Source: an uncultured Bacilli bacterium
Lineage (GTDB): Bacteria; Bacillota_I; Bacilli_A; RF39; UBA660
Reading direction: 5' to 3'
Length of the DNA stretch: 30,492 nt
Assembly: GCA_947627405.1 (NCBI GenBank)
Contig: CANQVY010000001.1
Location: forward strand, 1-30,492
Shown: in pieces, positions 3,036 to 22,870 of the stretch
How positions within the stretch are numbered: position 1 is the stretch's first letter
Layout of the letters: each line of letters opens with the position of its first letter
The notes under the pieces: model-generated
What the model was told of the DNA's origin: nothing
Seen by the model: only the letters and a program-made list of their open reading frames with translations
Databases searched by the model: none
Position numbers and translations under genes: made by a program

Positions 3036-3500
3036 ATGAAAGATTATGAAATTAATGATGATACTTTAGCAATCATTCCAGTTGATAATAAAAAAACTAA
3101 AGTATTAGAAAAGGACTATGAGTATGTAATTGAACAAAATGCATATAAGGTAATGGATTATAGTTGTCAATATTTTGGTAGTACTTATGAAGGTAGAAAG
3201 GGTGGAAGTAAAAATATTTTAGGAACAGGATATAAAGTGCCTATTTTAATAAGAGAAGATAATTATATTATTTTTTTTCCAACTGAATCTCCATTATTGG
3301 ATACATGTATGTGGATATCATTACATAATATAGAAAGATTTGAAAGAAGCGATAATAATACCACTAAAATTTATTTTAAAGATGGTAAAAACATTATTAT
3401 AGATGTGTCTTTTCGATCTATAGAAAATCAAATTTTAAGATCGACTCGATTAGAATCTGTCTTACGAAATCGATCAAATTCAAAAAATAATATTAAATGA
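3036..3500 (+). CDS. comK: ComK-family competence transcription factor
   Basis: YEIN-DTLAIIP, SCQYFGSTYEGRK, KVPILI, IFFPTES, WIS, F-DG and SIENQILR align by eye with B. subtilis ComK (YEVNGATIAVLP, SCRFFGSSYAGRK, FLFPTLS, WIS, SFENQVYR). SD AGGGGG. Confidence 0.9.
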   Translation: MKDYEINDDTLAIIPVDNKKTKVLEKDYEYVIEQNAYKVMDYSCQYFGSTYEGRKGGSKNILGTGYKVPILIREDNYIIFFPTESPLLDTCMWISLHNIERFERSDNNTTKIYFKDGKNIIIDVSFRSIENQILRSTRLESVLRNRSNSKNNIK

Positions 3501-4740: not shown

Positions 4741-6666
4741 ATGGAAAATGTCAAAATGGAATCTTATGATTCCTCATCAATTCAAGTATTAGAAGGGCTA
4801 GAAGCAGTCAGAAAAAGGCCAGGAATGTATATTGGAACAACAAGTTCTAGAGGACTTCATCATTTAGTATGGGAGATTGTTGATAATGCTATTGATGAGG
4901 CTTTAGCGGGATATTGTACTCATATAGAAGTAGAAATTGGAAAAGAAAATACGATTACCGTTAAAGATGATGGAAGGGGAATTCCAGTTGGAATTCATCA
5001 AAAAACAGGAAAGAGTACGGTAGAAACTGTTTATACGGTTTTGCACGCAGGTGGTAAATTTGGAGGAGGAGGATACAAAGTATCCGGAGGTTTACATGGT
5101 GTTGGTGCCAGTGTAGTAAATGCATTAAGTGAATGGTTAGAAGTAAAGGTATATAAAAATGGACATGTTTATTTTCAAAAATATAGTAATGGAGGACATC
5201 CAGAAGAAGAATTAAAAATAATCGATACATGTCCTGAAGAAAGAACTGGAACTACTGTAACTTTTAAACCAGATCCAGAAATTTTTACTGAAACCACAAT
5301 ATTTGATTATAGTATTTTGCGAACTAGATTAAGAGAACTTGCTTTTTTAAATAAGGGATTAAAAATAAGCCTATATGATTTAAGAGAGGATAATAAAAAA
5401 GAGTCCTTTCATTATGAAGGTGGATTAAATGAATATGTTGAAATGTTAAATAAAGATAAGAAACCTATTCATGAAACTATAATTTCTTGTAATGGAAATG
5501 AAAATGATATATCTTTAGAAGTAGCATTACAATATAACGAAACTTATAACGCAAGCATATATTCTTTTGTAAACAATATAAATACACCTGAAGGTGGAAC
5601 ACACGAAGATGGTGTCAAGAGAGCTTTAACAAGAATTCTTAACAAATATGCTAAAGAAGCGGGTATCTTAAAAGAAAAGGACGATCCTCTTAGTGGAGAA
5701 GATGTTAAAGAAGGTTTGACTATGATTGTATCTATAAAACATCCAAATCCACAATTTGAAGGACAAACCAAAACAAAATTAGGAAATAGTGAATGTCGAG
5801 GAATATCCGATAAGATTTTTTCAGCGGCTTTAGAAAGATTTTTGATGGAAAATCCAGATCAAGCTCGAGTTATAATTGATAAAGGTATGACTGCATCAAG
5901 GGCAAGAGTTGCTGCAAAAAAGGCAAGAGAATTAACTAGAAGAAAAGGGGATTTGGATATAACAAATTTTTATGGTAAACTTTCTGATTGTAAAAGTAAA
6001 GATCCTTCAGAATGTGAAATTTTTTTAGTGGAAGGAGATTCTGCTGGAGGATCAGCTATTAAAGGAAGAGATAGCATGAGACAAGCTATTTTACCACTTA
6101 GAGGAAAAATATTGAATGTAGAAAAAGCTAGATTAGATAGAGCTTTATCTAATGAGGAAATTCGAACGATTATAACTGCTTTTGGGACAGGAATAGGAGA
6201 CGAATTTAATCTAGATAAATTAAGATATGATAAAATTATTATAATGACGGATGCTGATGTAGATGGATCGCATATTCGAGTCTTATTATTGACTTTATTT
6301 TATCGTTTCTTTAGACCTATTGTAGAAGCTGGACATGTATATGCGGCTCAACCACCTCTATTTGTAATAAAACATGGTAAGACGATAAAATATGTTTTAA
6401 ATGAACAAGAAAGAGATGAATATTTAAAAACATTATCTCCAAATACAAAGTATGATATTATGCGTATGAAAGGTTTAGGAGAAATGGATGCAGAGGAACT
6501 AAATGAAACAACAATGGATATAGAAAAAAGAGTTTTAAGACAAATAACTGTTGAAGATGCAATGTCTGCTGATGATACTTTTTCAAAATTAATGGGTGAA
6601 GAAGTAGAACCAAGAAGAAAATTTATTGAAGAAAATGCAGTTTATGTACAAAATTTGGATATTTAG
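4741..6666 (+). CDS. gyrB: DNA gyrase subunit B
   Basis: [41 protein letters not shown] and DADVDG. Confidence 0.99.
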
Positions 6667-6676
6667 GAGGTAATTT

Positions 6677-9127
6677 ATGGACAGATTAGAGAAAAATAAT
6701 ATAGTTACGGAAGTTAAAGATTCATTTCTTGAATATTCAATGAGTGTTATTGTAGCTAGGGCATTACCTGATTTAAGAGATGGTTTAAAACCTGTGCATA
6801 GAAGAATATTATATTCAATGTATGAATCTGGTTATACTCCTGATAAACCTCATAAAAAAAGTGCAAGAATTGTTGGGGATGTTATGGGTAAATATCATCC
6901 TCATGGAGATTCTTCAATTTATGAAGCTATGGTAAGAATGGCTCAAGACTTTTCTTATAGATATATGTTAGTTGATGGGCACGGAAATTTTGGAAATATA
7001 GAAGGTTATGGGGCGGCAGCTATGCGTTATACCGAATCCAGACTTTCAAAAATTTCATTAGAATTATTGAAAAATATAAATAAAGATACTGTAGATTTTA
7101 TTCCAAATTTTGATGAATCTGAAAAAGAGCCAGAAATTTTACCGTCTCGTTTTCCAAATATATTAGTTAATGGTACGATGGGAATCGCAGTTGGTATGGC
7201 TACTAATATTCCACCACATAATTTAGGGGAAGTTATTGATGGATGTATTGCATATATAGACAATCCGGATATTGATTTAGATGAATTAATGAAATATATT
7301 AAGGGACCAGATTTTCCTACGGGAGGAATAATTCTAGGAAATAGTGGAATTAAAAAAGCTTATGAAACTGGAAGAGGAAGTATTACTATACGAAGTAGAG
7401 CAACTATAGAGGAAAAAAATGGAAAAAATTATATTATAGTTGATGAGGTTCCATATGGAGTTAATACATTAGAATTAAAAAACAAAGTAGCAGAATTAGT
7501 ACACAATAAAGTTATAGATGGGATTACCGATTATCATACAGATTTAAAAGACGGTGTAAAAATAACAATTACTTTAAAGAAAGATGCAAATCCACAAGTC
7601 GTTTTAAATAATCTATATAAGCACACTGCTTTTCAAACAAATTATGGGATTATCTTTTTAATGTTAGATCAAGGAGTTCCAAAAACTTTAGGTTTAAAAG
7701 AAATTATAGTAAAATATATTGATTATCAAAAGGAAATTATTATTCGAAGAACAAAATTTGATCTTGATAAAGATGAAAAAAGGGCTCATATTTTGGAAGG
7801 GTTAAAAATCGCATTGGATCACATTGATGCAATTGTAAGTTTAATTAGAGAATCTAAAAGCGATACTGAGGCCTTGGAAGGATTAATGTCTAAATTCTCT
7901 TTAACAGAGGCACAAGGACAGGCAATCTTAGAAATGAAATTAAGAAGATTAACTGGTTTAGAAAGAGATAAAATTGAAAATGAGTTAAAGGATTTACTAC
8001 AGGAAATTGATGAATTGAGATCTATTTTGGCTAGTGAGGAAAAGGTTTTAGAAATTATTAAAAATGAAATGATTGAAATAAAAAATAAATATGGTGATGA
8101 AAGAAAAACAAATATTGATATGACCGCTATTGATTATATAGAAGATGAATCTTTAATTCCAAATGATGATGTTATTATAACTTTAACCAATAAAGGGTAT
8201 ATAAAGAGGTTAAAATCTGATACGTATAGAACTCAAAATAGAGGTGGTGTTGGTATAAAAGGAATGTCGACTAATGAGGAAGATTTTGTTGAACATTTAA
8301 TATCTATAAAAACACATGACCATGTATTGTTCTTTTCTAATAGAGGAAGGGTATATAGAATTAAAGGATATGAAATACCAGAATTTAGTAGACAGTCAAA
8401 AGGTTTACCAATAATTAATTTATTACCATTGGAAAAGAACGAGAACATTAGTTCGATAATTGGTTTGTCAAAGAGCGATGATCTTTATAAATATTTGATA
8501 TTTATAACCAAATCAGGCCTTACAAAAAGAACTTTATTGTCTGAATTTGAAAATATAAGAAAATCTGGAAAGATTGCAATATCCTTAAAAGATGATGATG
8601 AATTAATAAGTGTAAGATCAACTACTGGAAACAATGAAATTATGATCGGTGCTAGCAATGGAAGAGTGGTTAGATTTAATGAAAAGGAAATTAGGATAAT
8701 GGGTCGAACAGCTTCCGGTGTAAAAGGTATTGATTTAAATTCTAGTAAAGCAATTGGAGGAGAAGTTGTTCAATCTGATAATAAAATATTGATTGTTACA
8801 GAAAAGGGTTATGGCAAACAAACTGAAATAGAAGAATATAGATTAACGCATCGAGGTAGTAAAGGTGTTAAAGCTTTAAATATAACTGATAAAAATGGAA
8901 TGATGGTATCTTTAAAAGCTATTGATAAAAATAAAAATTTAGATATTATGATAATTACTGATAATGGAATTGTCATAAAGATGCCACTTGATCAGGTTTC
9001 TACTTTAAGGAGAGCTACACAGGGTGTTCGTTTGATTCACTTAAAAGAAAATCAGAAAGTTTCTACAACCGCAGTCGTAGATCAAGAAGAAATCGATAAT
9101 TCTTTGGAAATAGTTGAAGAGAAATAA
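6677..9127 (+). CDS. gyrA: DNA gyrase subunit A
   Basis: [25 protein letters not shown] and the GyrA-box QNRGGVG, which distinguishes it from ParC. Confidence 0.99.
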
Positions 9128-9141
9128 AATTTCTCTTTTTT
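9117..9141 (+). terminator. Intrinsic terminator overlapping gyrA stop
   Basis: AAGAGAAAT-AAA-ATTTCTCTT followed by Ts. Confidence 0.6.
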
Positions 9142-9156
9142 ATTTCCCGGGAAATA
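9141..9156. promoter_or_regulatory. Noc-binding site (NBS)
   Basis: TATTTCCCGGGAAATA, an exact match to the B. subtilis Noc binding consensus. Confidence 0.85.
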
Positions 9157-9162
9157 ATTCAA

Positions 9163-9178
9163 TGTTTCACGTGAAACA
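9163..9178. promoter_or_regulatory. parS centromere site (ParB/Spo0J)
   Basis: TGTTTCACGTGAAACA, perfect consensus, embedded in a 38-bp perfect palindrome at 9152-9189. Confidence 0.95.
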
Positions 9179-9254
9179 TTGAATTATTTTAGAAACATAT
9201 AATTATATAAAATTAATTATGTATTGAACCTTCCAATCCACAATATTTTAATAA

Positions 9255-9270
9255 TGTTTCACGTGAAACA
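9255..9270. promoter_or_regulatory. parS centromere site (ParB/Spo0J)
   Basis: TGTTTCACGTGAAACA. The palindrome extends over 9252-9273. Confidence 0.95.
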
Positions 9271-9287: not shown

Positions 9288-9316
9288 TTGAAATATTTTA
9301 AAAAATATATTATTAT
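9288..9316 (+). promoter_or_regulatory. sigma-A promoter of ffs
   Basis: TTGAAA (9288-9293), 17 bp spacer, TATTAT (9311-9316). The predicted start falls at the RNA 5' end. Confidence 0.7.
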
Positions 9317-9322
9317 ATTAAA

Positions 9323-9396
9323 GACGCAATAAAAATGATTAGAACCAGGTCAGGACTGGAAAGTAGCAGCCTTAATAATTTCTTTTTATGTGCGTC
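9323..9396 (+). ncRNA. ffs: Signal recognition particle RNA, small 4.5S type
   Basis: Conserved helix-8 core CCAGGTCAGG-ACT-GGAA-AGT-AGCAGCC. Terminal stem GACGCA/TGCGTC plus ATAAAAA/TTTTTAT, followed by a T-run. Confidence 0.92.
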
Positions 9397-9415
9397 ATTT
9401 TTTATAGGTGATAAT

Positions 9416-9847
9416 ATGTGTGATAAATATTATATGAATTTGGCATTAATTCAAGCTAAAAAAGCATTAAAGAAAAATGAAGTTCCAGTAGGTGCAATTG
9501 TTGTTGATGAAAAAGGAAATATAATTGGTAAAGGTTATAATAAAAAGGAAAAACACAAAAGTGTTTGTGAACATGCAGAAATCATTGCAATAACTAAAGC
9601 ATCTAAAAAAATTAAAAGTTGGAGATTGAACAATTGTTCGATATATACTACATTGGAACCTTGCCCAATGTGTGCGAGTGCAATTGAACAATCTAGAATA
9701 AAAAAAGTATATTATGGAACTTCCAGAAAAGATGAGAATAATAAAAAAATAATAAATAATATATTAAAAAATATAGATATTCAAGAAAATATTTATGTAG
9801 AAGAATGCGCTAAATTATTATCCGACTTTTTTAAAAATAGGAGATAA
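9416..9847 (+). CDS. tadA: tRNA adenosine(34) deaminase
   Basis: EVPVGA, HAE and TLEPCPMC zinc motifs. Start moved from ORF-track 9335 (inside ffs) to ATG 9416 after SD AGGTGA. Confidence 0.93.
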   Translation: MCDKYYMNLALIQAKKALKKNEVPVGAIVVDEKGNIIGKGYNKKEKHKSVCEHAEIIAITKASKKIKSWRLNNCSIYTTLEPCPMCASAIEQSRIKKVYYGTSRKDENNKKIINNILKNIDIQENIYVEECAKLLSDFFKNRR

Positions 9848-9849
9848 AT

Positions 9850-9865
9850 TATTTCCCGGGAAATA
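9850..9865. promoter_or_regulatory. Noc-binding site (NBS)
   Basis: TATTTCCCGGGAAATA within a 28-bp perfect palindrome at 9844-9871. Confidence 0.85.
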
Positions 9866-9887
9866 ATTTATTATGTTTATTAAACAA

Positions 9888-9916
9888 TTTACAGTTTTAA
9901 CTACAAATGTTATAAT
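9888..9916 (+). promoter_or_regulatory. sigma-A promoter of the dnaX operon
   Basis: TTTACA (9888-9893), 17 bp spacer, TATAAT (9911-9916), with TG extension. Confidence 0.75.
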
Positions 9917-9945
9917 AATATTGTATTAATTATGGGGGAATGATT

Positions 9946-11595
9946 ATGTATCAATCATTATATAGAAAATATCGTCCCACTACTATTAATGATGTTGTGG
10001 GACAATCAATTGCATTAAAAATAATTAAAAATTCATTAAAAAATAATAAAATAGGACATGCTTATTTGTTTTCAGGGCCTCGTGGTACTGGTAAAACAAC
10101 AATGGCTAAAATTTTGGCTAAAAGTGTGAATTGTTTGAATTTAATTGATGGGATTTCTTGTGAGAAGTGTAAAAATTGTGTTGAAATTAATTCAAATGAA
10201 ACTGTTGATATTATTGAGATTGATGCTGCTTCTAATAATGGTGTTGATGAAATAAGGGAAATTCGAAATAGCGTTTCCTTATCTTGTTCTTCATTAAAAT
10301 ATAAGATATATATTGTTGATGAAGTTCATATGCTCACTATAGGCGCTTTTAATGCTTTATTAAAGACTTTGGAAGAGCCTCCGGAACATATTATTTTTAT
10401 ATTGGCAACAACTGATGTTCAAAAGGTTCCATCAACAATCATTTCTAGATGTCAATGCATTAATTTTGAAAGCATATCTGCAATCAATATCAAAAGAAGA
10501 TTACAAGAAATTTCAGAAAAAGAAGGAATAAAAATTGAAGATAATATTTTAATGAAAATTGCCGAAATTTCTAATGGTGGTCTTAGGGATGCCATTGGAA
10601 ATTTAGAAAAATTAATTGCTGCTTCTGATGAGAAAATGATTACACTTGATATATTTAATAGTACCTTTGGATTTGCTGATGATATATTGTTAAATGAATT
10701 TTTCAATACAATTATAGAAAACAATATAAATGGAATGTTGTCCCTTTCAGATACATTATATAACAGTGGAAAAAATTATATTATCTTTGTTAATGAAATG
10801 ATAACTTTTGTTAGAAACAAGATTAGAATATTTTATGAAAAGAACAATGGCATTTGTCCTTATTGCGATTTGGTTTTTCAATTGGATAAGTTATGTAATC
10901 AATTAAAAAATACAGATAATATCAAAGCTTTATTTGAAGCCGGTATAATTAATATAATATGTCATTTCAATGATTCTATAGATAATAATCAAGTGATTAT
11001 ACAAGAAAAAAAAGAAAATAATTCTAATCATTTAATTGATAAGAAAATATTTCATGAACAAGAAGTTAAAAAAAATAGTGAAAAGGAAAAAAATTTTTCA
11101 TCAAAAAAGGAAAATAGCGTTTTAATTGAAAATAATGAGATCATTATGAATAATACTTTTGCTTTAGCAAATAAACATGATTTACAAAAAATTAAGGAAA
11201 AATGGAATAAATTAAATGAATATTTATTAGATCAAAAAAATGGGTCAATTGCATGTTATTTATTTGATGGTAATATTCGAGCGTGTGGCAAAAACAATAT
11301 AATATTAAGTTATGAATATGATTCTATGGTAAATAGAGGTTTTGATATTTATGATTCTTTAATTGAATTTTTAAATGAGGTTTTTAACGAAAGGTATTAT
11401 TTATCTTTAATAACGGATGAGCAATGGAAAACTGCCAAAGATCAATATATACAAAATGTAAAAAATCATGTTGAATATAAAATTAAAGAATTGAAAACTT
11501 CAGAAACAAAAATAGATACGAAGCAAACACAAAATTTTGAAACCATGGATGAGGCTAGTTTATTATTTGGAGAAGATATTGTAGAGATAAAGTAA
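9946..11595 (+). CDS. dnaX: DNA polymerase III subunit gamma/tau
   Basis: LYRKYRP, HAYLFSGPRGTGKT, zinc motif C..CEKCKNC, EIDAASNNG, DEVHML and SRC. ATG 9946 is spaced best from SD GGGGG. Confidence 0.98.
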   Translation: MYQSLYRKYRPTTINDVVGQSIALKIIKNSLKNNKIGHAYLFSGPRGTGKTTMAKILAKSVNCLNLIDGISCEKCKNCVEINSNETVDIIEIDAASNNGVDEIREIRNSVSLSCSSLKYKIYIVDEVHMLTIGAFNALLKTLEEPPEHIIFILATTDVQKVPSTIISRCQCINFESISAINIKRRLQEISEKEGIKIEDNILMKIAEISNGGLRDAIGNLEKLIAASDEKMITLDIFNSTFGFADDILLNEFFNTIIENNINGMLSLSDTLYNSGKNYIIFVNEMITFVRNKIRIFYEKNNGICPYCDLVFQLDKLCNQLKNTDNIKALFEAGIINIICHFNDSIDNNQVIIQEKKENNSNHLIDKKIFHEQEVKKNSEKEKNFSSKKENSVLIENNEIIMNNTFALANKHDLQKIKEKWNKLNEYLLDQKNGSIACYLFDGNIRACGKNNIILSYEYDSMVNRGFDIYDSLIEFLNEVFNERYYLSLITDEQWKTAKDQYIQNVKNHVEYKIKELKTSETKIDTKQTQNFETMDEASLLFGEDIVEIK

Positions 11596-21091: not shown

Positions 21092-21316
21092 ATATTTAAA
21101 AGTTTTGAAGGAAAGAGTATATAAAAATTGCTATTATAGAGAGCTTTGTTAGGTGAAAGAAAGTATAGCATATTTATAGAACATGGTTCTGGAACTTACT
21201 TCTCGATATTTAGATTAGTACGTTAACTACGTTAAAAGTTTTAGAGAGTATGATTTTATATCATAAATTAAGGTGGTAACACGGTAACTCGTCCTTTTGC
21301 TAGGATGAGTTTTTTC
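21092..21316 (+). promoter_or_regulatory. Met T-box riboswitch
   Basis: AGAGAGC and GGTGAAAG stem-I motifs. Specifier ATG at 21183-21185. T-box AAGGTGGTAACACG at about 21270-21283. Terminator ACTCGTCCT/AGGATGAGT plus T-run at 21286-21316. Confidence 0.93.
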
Positions 21317-21346: not shown

Positions 21347-22870
21347 ATGAAAAAGAACACTTATTATATAACAACGCCAATCTATTATCCAAGCGCTAAT
21401 TTTCATATTGGACATTGTTATACAACAATAATTGCTGATTCAATTGCAAGGTATAAAAGAATGCAAGGATATGATGTTTGTTTTCAAACAGGAACAGATG
21501 AGCATGGTCAAAAAATAGCTACAAGAGCAAAAGAGGCGGGATTAGATCCAAAATCTTATGTGGATAATATTGTAGAAAATGCGAAAGATTTATGGAAATC
21601 TTTAAATATATCTTATGATAAATTTATTCGAACAACAGATAAATTTCATGAATTAGCTGTACAGAAAATATTTACAAAGTTATATGAGCAGGGAGATATT
21701 TATAAAGGAGAATATAAAGGATTATATTGTACGCCGTGTGAATCTTTTTGGACTTCTACACAATTGATAGATGGTAAATGTCCCGATTGTGGAAGAGAAG
21801 TACATGAAGTAAAGGAAGAAGCATATTTTTTAAAATTATCCAATTATGCGGATCAATTAGTAAAATATATTGAGATGCATCCAGATTTTATTCAACCAGA
21901 ATCTAGAAAAAATGAAATGATTAATAATTTTATTAAACCAGGCCTTGAAGATTTATGCGTTTCAAGAACTAGTTTTAGTTGGGGGATTCAAGTTCCATTT
22001 GATCCTAAGCATGTGGTTTATGTATGGTTAGATGCATTAACAAATTATATTACTTCTTTAGGGTATATGAGCGATGATGATACCGAATTCAAAAAATATT
22101 GGCCAGCGGATTTACATTTGGTTGGAAAAGAAATTACGCGTTTTCATACTATTGTATGGCCTATCTTGTTAATGGCATTGGATTTACCAATTCCTAAACA
22201 AGTTTTTGGGCATGGTTGGTTAGTTATTAATGGAGGTAAAATTTCCAAATCACTTGGAAATTATAAAGATCCCAGAGAATATATTAAAGAATATGGAGTA
22301 GATGCTGTTCGTTATTTTGTATTAAGGGAAGTCCCTTTTGGCAATGATGGTACATTTTCTGAAGAAGCTTTAATTCATAGAACTAATGCCGATTTAGCCA
22401 ACAATTTAGGTAATTTAGTTAATCGAACCATTTCAATGGCTAATAAATATTTTGATGGCCAAATAGCTAATAAACACGAGAAAGAATCTATTGATAAGGA
22501 ATTATTCGATGCAGTAAATAAGGTAAATCAAATAGTGAAAGAAAAGATGGAACTTTTGCATGTAAGCGAAGCTTTAGAATCTATATTTGATGTTCTTAGA
22601 CGAAGCAATAAATATATCGACGAGACTACTCCTTGGATATTAGCAAAGGATGAATCAAACAGAAATCGATTAGAAACAGTTCTTTATAATTTATTAGAAT
22701 CTATACGTGTTTGTGCTACTTTGTTAGCGCCTTATCTTCCTGATACATCAAAAAAAATTAAGGAACAGTTAAATAATTTTGAGTCAAGTGACAATTACTT
22801 AGAAAACAATCATTATCAAGTAAATATTCCTACTCCTTTATTTCAAAGAATTGATAAAAAGGTAGAATAA
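21347..22870 (+). CDS. metG: Methionine--tRNA ligase (short form)
   Basis: YITTPIYYPS, HIGH, TGTDEHG, CTPC/CPDC knuckle, YVWLDAL and KISKS. Confidence 0.98.
   Translation: MKKNTYYITTPIYYPSANFHIGHCYTTIIADSIARYKRMQGYDVCFQTGTDEHGQKIATRAKEAGLDPKSYVDNIVENAKDLWKSLNISYDKFIRTTDKFHELAVQKIFTKLYEQGDIYKGEYKGLYCTPCESFWTSTQLIDGKCPDCGREVHEVKEEAYFLKLSNYADQLVKYIEMHPDFIQPESRKNEMINNFIKPGLEDLCVSRTSFSWGIQVPFDPKHVVYVWLDALTNYITSLGYMSDDDTEFKKYWPADLHLVGKEITRFHTIVWPILLMALDLPIPKQVFGHGWLVINGGKISKSLGNYKDPREYIKEYGVDAVRYFVLREVPFGNDGTFSEEALIHRTNADLANNLGNLVNRTISMANKYFDGQIANKHEKESIDKELFDAVNKVNQIVKEKMELLHVSEALESIFDVLRRSNKYIDETTPWILAKDESNRNRLETVLYNLLESIRVCATLLAPYLPDTSKKIKEQLNNFESSDNYLENNHYQVNIPTPLFQRIDKKVE

Follow-up and report, generated by a model that had tools for sequence, protein, structure and literature searches.

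The stretch of DNA analysed here, in the following called the window, comprises 30,492 nucleotides (contig CANQVY010000001.1 of the assembly GCA_947627405.1) from an uncultured Bacilli bacterium of the GTDB lineage Bacillota_I, Bacilli_A, RF39, UBA660, whose assembly contains 1,197,693 bp in 148 contigs with a GC content of 0.278 and is 87.8% complete. It represents the region of the replication origin (oriC) with the order dnaA-dnaN-open reading frame (ORF)-recF-gyrB-gyrA, followed by a cluster of palindromic sites and then by the gene for the signal recognition particle (SRP) RNA, tadA, and dnaX. The site cluster, which is the subject of this work, lies about 9 kb from oriC and its DnaA-box cluster in the gap between gyrA and the SRP RNA gene and tadA, and it combines sites of two kinds, the Noc-binding site (NBS) and the ParB-binding site parS. 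The first site, NBS-1, is a perfect copy of the 16-bp NBS palindrome TATTTCCCGGGAAATA with its centre at 9148/9149, and the second, parS-1, is a perfect copy of TGTTTCACGTGAAACA with its centre at 9170/9171, so that the two are 22 bp apart from centre to centre and separated by the 6-bp spacer ATTCAA. A further perfect parS follows 92 bp beyond parS-1, and another perfect NBS (NBS-2) is located behind tadA (Table 1). The pair, its spacing, and the second parS had been noticed in a sequence-only reading made by a model from the letters of the window, and all of these coordinates proved correct. That reading had overlooked NBS-2, the palindrome around parS-1 described below, and the location of the pair in the gap behind gyrA, 9 kb from oriC. 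According to PMC7383237, the half-sites of NBS and parS differ in two places, NBS having A for G at position 1 and C for A at position 6, and TATTTCCCGGGAAATA, to which the sequence-only reading had given the name NBS, fits these differences.

The sites are embedded in longer inverted repeats. A perfect 38-bp palindrome (9152-9189) is centred on parS-1 and covers the last five bases of NBS-1, NBS-2 forms the centre of a 28-bp palindrome (9844-9871), and parS-2 sits in one of 22 bp. Mapping of all such sites, which the sequence-only reading had advised, showed that the whole assembly contains four NBS and two parS 16-mers, all of them perfect, and no copy of either 16-mer with one or two mismatches. 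With the 14-mer cores and up to one mismatch, the assembly-wide counts were again four for NBS and two for parS, with none for the reversed control. When up to three mismatches were allowed within the window, the NBS pattern gave two matches (9141 and 9850, both perfect) vs. 0.28 in shuffled sequences and the parS pattern three (two perfect) vs. 0.13. From the base composition we calculate a chance expectation of about 3e-4 for each perfect 16-mer in 1.2 Mb. The hexamer CCCGGG occurs six times in the assembly, and four of these occurrences are NBS cores. The site pair is thus real and far beyond chance.

The two remaining NBS are located on another contig of the same assembly (C47), one upstream of mnmE and one at the mnmE/mnmG junction. 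In a genome of the same genus (G001), a single contig carries the whole arrangement in the order recR-ybaB-dnaX-NBS-tadA-three parS-NBS-gyrA-gyrB-recF-dnaN-dnaA, about 2.4 kb, NBS-mnmE-NBS-mnmG, and for this reason the four NBS can be placed on both sides of oriC, at roughly -3.9, -2.4, +8.8, and +9.5 kb. All sites mapped in this way are found 2.4-9.5 kb from dnaA. The sequence-only reading had described NBS as normally dispersed, which is true of the model organisms; in this lineage, in contrast, every perfect NBS lies near the origin.

The mixed arrangement was sought in public genomes (one genome per species) with the pattern NBS14-N(0-30)-parS14. An NBS within 30 bp of a parS was found in at least 120 stretches, all those listed coming from assemblies of uncultured Bacilli, Tenericutes, or CAG bacteria. 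Among the 120 matches listed, 73 are located between gyrA and tadA and 38 are accompanied by one of these genes and the end of the locus, with 111 adjoining gyrA and/or tadA. Within the family, whose genomes have sizes of 0.7-1.5 Mb, co-clustering at the gyrA-tadA locus was observed in 16 sampled genera, and the NBS 14-mer is present one to five times per genome and clustered in 16 of 18 genomes and, in a second sample, in 24 of 27. The genes were mapped in 20 fetched regions: parS was always situated within the gyrA-tadA gap, and NBS were located there as well as between tadA and dnaX or within dnaX, 5' of mnmE, and a few kb past recR. The gene noc is found together with NBS on one contig in 14 family genomes, and each of their 25 perfect NBS is 15-26 kb away from noc, i.e., across oriC from it. 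The 16-mers are perfect across species while their flanks vary. The mixed site cluster is therefore shared by well over 100 related species, and the order NBS-parS-parS in the gyrA-tadA gap of the window is a minimal version of the site-array anatomy of the lineage.

Some arrays contain tandem repeats. In the same-genus genome G001 (L123, G001:C2, ~5077-5373), repeats are about 115 bp apart, with parS starts at distances of 116 and 113 bp, and both full units hold a perfect parS and an NBS-like sequence with one mismatch, ATTTCCTGGGAAAT; degenerate NBS thus exist within the array of close relatives. In a further family genome (L130, G007:C24, 4934-5106), three 66-bp tandem units follow directly on gyrA, each an NBS-parS pair with 27-bp spacing, and the contig ends inside the array. 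In another family, f24, long Noc frames (372-681 amino acids) occur with NBS close to noc and parB, and the origin-restricted arrangement may be shared there.

What is conserved is the co-clustering and not the spacing of two helical turns, on whose conservation the sequence-only reading had made its idea depend. In the same genus the centre distances are 22 (window), 67, 27, and 21 plus 26 bp. Among the 120 matches listed they start at 17 bp and exceed 44 bp at the upper end, with peaks at 26-27 and 36-37 bp, and the 22 bp of the window, found at five loci, stand at the short end of this range. The two 16-mers never overlap among these matches, the minimum being 17 bp from centre to centre. 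Helical phasing is not claimed, as a Fourier test gave a weak signal (permutation p 0.02-0.03 at periods of 10.5-12, uncorrected, with similar spacers collapsed). We infer that the exact spacing of 22 bp is incidental and that the sites merely need not to overlap.

The two ParB-family paralogues

The assembly contains only two genes with a ParB_N domain. They are located on contigs with the order mnmE-mnmG-rsmG-noc-soj (5' part; C47) and soj (3' part)-parB (C94), which fit together to rsmG-noc-soj-parB, the gene order in which noc is expected. The sequence-only reading had recommended a search for both genes and an inspection of their specificity residues, and both were found. The product of the first gene, a protein of 450 amino acids, matches PF02195 with 122.4 bits and scores best against Noc structures (7NFU, 211.8 bits; 7OL9, 183.7 bits; Spo0J 6SDK, 167.6 bits). 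Its cytidine triphosphate (CTP)-binding motifs GERR and ENLQR are conserved in the alignments to Noc 7NFU and 7OL9, including that of Bacillus subtilis. DNA-binding specificity in this protein family is described by a code of four positions (173, 179, 184, and 201), which is RTAG for ParB and QKKR for Noc (Jalal et al., PMC7383237). In NBS recognition, Q173 is responsible for adenine 1 and R201 for cytosine 6, and position 179 or 184 must carry a permissive lysine (PMC7383237). By alignment, the 450-amino-acid protein has Q-K-T-R at these positions and thus the residues of an NBS-specific protein.

The second gene (G000:C94:380-1264) codes for a ParB of 294 amino acids, whose best match is B. 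subtilis Spo0J (6SDK, 215.1 bits). Its specificity residues are R-M-N-S, with arginine at position 173 and serine at position 201, the latter also being present in ParB of some relatives, and its N-terminus holds RRALGRGLEDLF, the LGRGL motif for contact with ParA. Copies of TGTTTCACGTGAAACA near oriC, R173, a small residue at 201, and the ParA-contact motif are the features of a parS/ParB centromere of the Firmicute type; an SMC gene is present as well. In a maximum-likelihood tree (IQ-TREE) of 35 sequences, sampled from this family and from other genomes of the same class, Noc and ParB are split with support of 100/100 into a clade with Q-K-x-R and a clade with R-x-x-G/S, and the long proteins of the family are monophyletic (100/100) within the Noc side. 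Both noc and parB are kept in 27 of 27 sampled family genomes.

The 450-amino-acid protein deviates from canonical Noc in its N-terminus and by an insert. As the best 120 matches of a homologue search were all long proteins of the lineage, canonical Noc sequences were taken from genomes scoring above the NCBIfam cut-off. These start with MFNIFSRDD or MFSFFSKDD 27 residues ahead of the motif PNxxQPR, whereas the protein considered here starts with MFMNNSNEQNE 21 residues ahead of it, and its alignment begins 16-18 residues into the Noc chains of Geobacillus and B. subtilis. Its N-terminal stretch MFMNNSNEQN contains neither lysine nor arginine and has a hydrophobic moment of 0.13 vs. 0.27-0.54 in canonical Noc, and 30 distinct N-termini of lineage homologues (14-41 amino acids) are polar or acidic and have no motif in common. 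The N-terminal amphipathic helix for membrane targeting is thus lacking. In B. subtilis Noc, the membrane determinant is reported to be the first 10 amino acids (PMC8429893) and to be needed for function (PMC8429893, PMC4331003), and the N-terminal membrane motif has been called extremely conserved in all Noc homologues examined in that study (PMC4331003). Because of the missing helix, the membrane tethering by Noc that had been envisaged in the sequence-only reading appears unlikely for this protein.

In addition, the DNA-binding domain is separated from a short C-terminal tail by a low-complexity insert of about 200 amino acids, which is rich in E, N, Q, S, and P and has a net charge of -26. 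This tail presumably resembles the C-terminus of B. subtilis Noc. All sampled family members have long Noc-clade frames (351-611 amino acids). Since the insert interrupts the match to the Noc profile TIGR04285, which spans positions 1-195 of 255, the score of 286.2 bits stays under the curated cut-off of 315, as do the scores of all sampled family members. In view of the absent helix, the insert, and this score, the 450-amino-acid protein is classed, as judged from its sequence, as a Noc-clade paralogue rather than as a canonical Noc of nucleoid occlusion.

A probable mixed centromere and its alternatives

We regard it as probable that the cluster is a genuine composite loading region, or mixed centromere, for two paralogous CTP-dependent clamps, situated in the only parS cluster of the chromosome and served by an origin-restricted Noc that has no membrane anchor. 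This reading is reasonable because the co-clustering of NBS and parS recurs in the at least 120 stretches and 16 sampled genera described above. The broader form of the loading hub suggested in the sequence-only reading, in which segregation and Noc functions meet at one place, is thus supported by the recurrent co-clustering and by the two cognate proteins with their differing residues, whereas its strict form with a fixed spacing fails, since the spacing is not conserved. In the mechanism we propose, ParB would nucleate on the two parS, and the Noc-clade protein would nucleate on NBS-1, 6 bp away, and on the three further perfect NBS (NBS-2 and the two on C47). Both clamps would be loaded next to each other and would slide along a common origin region of about 15 kb, and as the four NBS flank oriC and spreading extends over kb, Noc would coat oriC. 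It would then serve as a second origin or centromere protein in origin organisation, in support of segregation, or in initiation control, rather than as a chromosome-wide, membrane-tethering nucleoid-occlusion factor. An initiation-control role is suggested by analogy to the replication control exerted by Noc of Staphylococcus aureus (PMC5540599). Given the shared site cluster and the missing membrane anchor, the probable workplace of Noc is the centromere rather than the chromosome as a whole.

Several points weigh against this interpretation. The placement of all four NBS around oriC leans on the same-genus genome G001, because the contigs C47 and C94 are not joined to the contig of the window (C1). 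Further sites could be hidden in unassembled sequence (see the number of contigs and the completeness given above). Contact of Noc with the membrane via another part of the protein or via a partner is possible, and some cross-reading of the sites by ParB with its S201 is conceivable in light of the variants discussed below. Finally, Noc and ParB dimers would abut at a distance of 22 bp, and we infer their simultaneous occupancy from the lengths of the co-crystal duplexes (20 and 22 bp) and the minimum spacing of 17 bp in relatives.

A more far-reaching proposal is put forward tentatively, and we give it somewhat less than even weight: the Noc of this lineage might be a second centromere protein and not a nucleoid-occlusion factor, i.e., an anchorless CTP-gated clamp that is loaded at parS-interleaved NBS and forms a hetero-clamp origin complex with ParB for origin organisation, SMC loading, or initiation control. 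It would perhaps preserve, or have reverted to, the state after the duplication of parB to noc and before the acquisition of the membrane helix and of dispersed sites; the Noc subclades form a polytomy in the 35-sequence tree, which does not separate an ancestral from a derived anchorless state. Noc and ParB are the textbook pair for the divergence of DNA-binding specificity after gene duplication, and at present the function of Noc is understood as membrane tethering that starts from numerous dispersed sites. The lineage combines NBS-type residues in a Noc-clade protein and perfect NBS with the lack of the helix and with sites only beside parS at the origin, which points to a second, origin-centred task of Noc, perhaps the ancestral one. 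The locus would also offer a natural setting for two sliding clamps loaded a few bp from each other, so that clamp traffic, roadblocking, and cooperation could be addressed in vitro on 150 bp of natural DNA.

That the locus reflects classical nucleoid occlusion with a minimal set of sites seems unlikely. Noc would in this case reach the membrane via a partner or its long insert and keep the Z ring off unsegregated origins, and the proximity to parS would mean no more than that both favour the origin. The protein indeed belongs to the Noc clade, and FtsZ is encoded in 39 of 40 family genomes; it was not found in the bacterium's own assembly, which is probably an assembly gap, and loss of FtsZ as a biological trait was rejected on account of the other genomes. 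As no MinD above the cut-off was detected in the assembly, another regulator of the division site would be useful. On the other hand, the helix required in B. subtilis Noc according to the studies cited above is absent here and throughout the lineage, a set of four sites, none farther than about 10 kb from oriC, would protect no more than a tiny fraction of the nucleoid, and the acidic insert is unlikely to bind anionic lipid.

Rather improbable, in our judgment, is the view that NBS-bound Noc acts mainly as a roadblock, boundary, or transcriptional element which limits or directs the sliding of ParB or insulates gyrA, the SRP RNA gene ffs, tadA, and dnaX. Sliding of ParB is stopped by tightly bound proteins. 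The NBS at 9141 and 9850 bracket two parS, ffs, and tadA in the window, and in the same-genus genome G001 and the family genome G016 NBS are present at both edges of the parS cluster. At least one of the two sites nearest to gyrA is an NBS in 73 of 86 complete mixed gaps (permutation p < 5e-5, the related genomes not being independent). The opposite side does not fit, however, as the tadA-proximal site of the gyrA-tadA gap is an NBS in 16 cases compared to 28.4 expected; NBS being favoured at the gyrA edge and depleted at the tadA edge, bookending of the parS cluster was rejected as a general rule. Moreover, NBS and parS alternate throughout many arrays, which is no boundary layout, and a closed CTP clamp leaves its loading site and should hence be a poor static barrier.

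Very improbable, and already largely refuted by conservation, is a reading without protein sites, in which the palindromes would have arisen by chance or would form hairpins in RNA or DNA, either as terminators of gyrA and tadA or as cruciforms. NBS-1 and NBS-2 lie 14 and 3 bp past stop codons, and the 81-nt stretch around the palindrome of parS-1 (9120-9200) folds as RNA with -25.9 kcal/mol (z = -7.2). Against this, the sites are letter-perfect copies of the experimentally defined 16-mers of NBS and parS (PMC7383237, PMC8429893), they far exceed the chance expectation, they are kept across genera with variable flanks, both cognate proteins are encoded, and one NBS falls within the 5' end of mnmG. 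Throughout the lineage (L003-L142), extended palindromes are far commoner than AT-rich flanks predict, with a peak at 24-26 bp for NBS, and they may serve extended recognition or be used as hairpin or cruciform. A function as gyrA terminator was rejected: a short hairpin with a T-run follows gyrA ahead of the first site in four of four same-genus genomes, and a scan for consensus terminators, for which this gyrA hairpin is too weak, found none here. A terminator role of the palindromes is for these reasons at most secondary.

Hardly credible, finally, is the alternative offered by the sequence-only reading that one ParB-family protein reads both sites, for although serine or threonine at 201, as in the ParB found here, is frequent among the dual-specificity variants of a deep mutational scan (PMC7383237), this ParB has M and N at 179 and 184 instead of the permissive K/R that accompanies NBS binding (PMC7383237), and a single reader is unnecessary because there are two paralogues from separate clades whose diagnostic residues are opposed, Noc having Q and R where ParB has R and S, and both are retained in all 27 sampled family genomes.

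Further features of the window

The features of the origin region are collected in Table 1. The names dnaX, ybaB, and recR are taken over from the gene order known from B. subtilis, on the assumption that it applies here; the gene order around the dnaX-like ORF is kept in relatives. Between dnaN and recF, an ORF at 3036-3500 had no NCBIfam match; Bacillus carries yaaA at this position. A T-box leader (21096-21299; RF00230, 112 bits) is located upstream of an ORF at 21347-22870.

Table 1 Features of the origin region in the window, with positions in nucleotides
Feature	Position	Strand	Remarks
DnaA-box cluster (part of oriC), upstream of dnaA	104..234		Five boxes, three perfect TTATCCACA
dnaA	328..1704	+	TIGR00362, 519.8 bits, above cut-off
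gyrA	6677..9127	+	NF004043, 1152.9 bits; NBS-1 begins 14 bp past the stop codon
Likely gyrA terminator	9118..9141	+	Short A/U-rich hairpin AGAGAAAT-AAA-ATTTCTCT and T-run just 5' of NBS-1; direct reading
NBS-1, TATTTCCCGGGAAATA	9141..9156	.	Pattern match
Spacer ATTCAA	9157..9162	.	NBS-1 to parS-1
parS-1, TGTTTCACGTGAAACA	9163..9178	.	Centre of 38-bp palindrome; as RNA, 18-bp hairpin
parS-2, TGTTTCACGTGAAACA	9255..9270	.	18 bp upstream of promoter-like -35 hexamer of SRP RNA
Small SRP RNA gene (ffs)	9315..9411	+	Rfam RF00169, 61.9 bits; promoter-like TTGAAA-17-TATTAT at 9288-9316
tadA (tRNA adenosine deaminase-like)	9416..9847	+	NF008113, 121.4 bits, under cut-off of 150
NBS-2	9850..9865	.	3 bp past tadA stop; 23 bp upstream of dnaX promoter-like site 9888-9916
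dnaX-like ORF, followed by ybaB-like and recR-like ORFs	9940..11595 (dnaX-like)	+	Named by gene order alone

Comparison with known systems

For a comparison with canonical Noc systems, counts of the perfect 14-mer were unusable, as most genomes of canonical-Noc families have none (in the families f5, f6, f9, and f11 it was absent from every sampled genome), and mismatches were instead allowed in complete genomes. In these, the NBS-like sites, which are degenerate, occur all over the chromosome, and their excess over the control is modest at this stringency. In one comparator genome (G129), 290 kb separate the three perfect parS, at 18.5-23.4 kb of the contig, from the closest NBS with at most one mismatch. 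Where families of the class possess just one ParB-family gene, parS is present and NBS is missing. For S. aureus Noc, 41 chromatin immunoprecipitation (ChIP) loci have been reported, each with spreading over 8-10 kb; a single one lies more than 700 kb from the origin, and minor peaks flank dnaA (PMC5540599). The four perfect sites found here are all located on contigs of the origin region and show none of the dispersal, covering the origin-proximal half or up to two-thirds of the chromosome, that marks the NBS of the model organisms. A full-text search of the literature returned no description of NBS interleaved with parS or of an anchorless Noc clade.

With the Noc-NBS systems of B. subtilis and S. 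aureus (PMC4331003, PMC8429893, PMC5540599), the locus shares the identical 16-bp NBS, a protein from the Noc clade in which Q173, K179, and R201 are present and the CTP motifs are intact, and the order rsmG-noc-soj-parB. It differs from them in that the protein of the lineage has no N-terminal amphipathic helix and contains the acidic low-complexity insert of about 200 amino acids, in that NBS are few (four here, one to five in relatives), perfect, and near oriC, whereas the model organisms have tens of degenerate ones, and in that NBS are interleaved with parS. The likeness to the Firmicute ParABS centromere consists in perfect parS near the origin, a ParB with LGRGL and R173, soj beside parB, and the presence of SMC; unlike there, where several parS are scattered around the origin, all parS (two here) are confined to one short gap, and the cluster also has loading sites for a second clamp of the ParB family. 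Noc of S. aureus has also been described as regulating the initiation of replication (PMC5540599), and the lineage protein would have in common with it a position at or near oriC, which spreading over 8-10 kb from the four NBS would cover.

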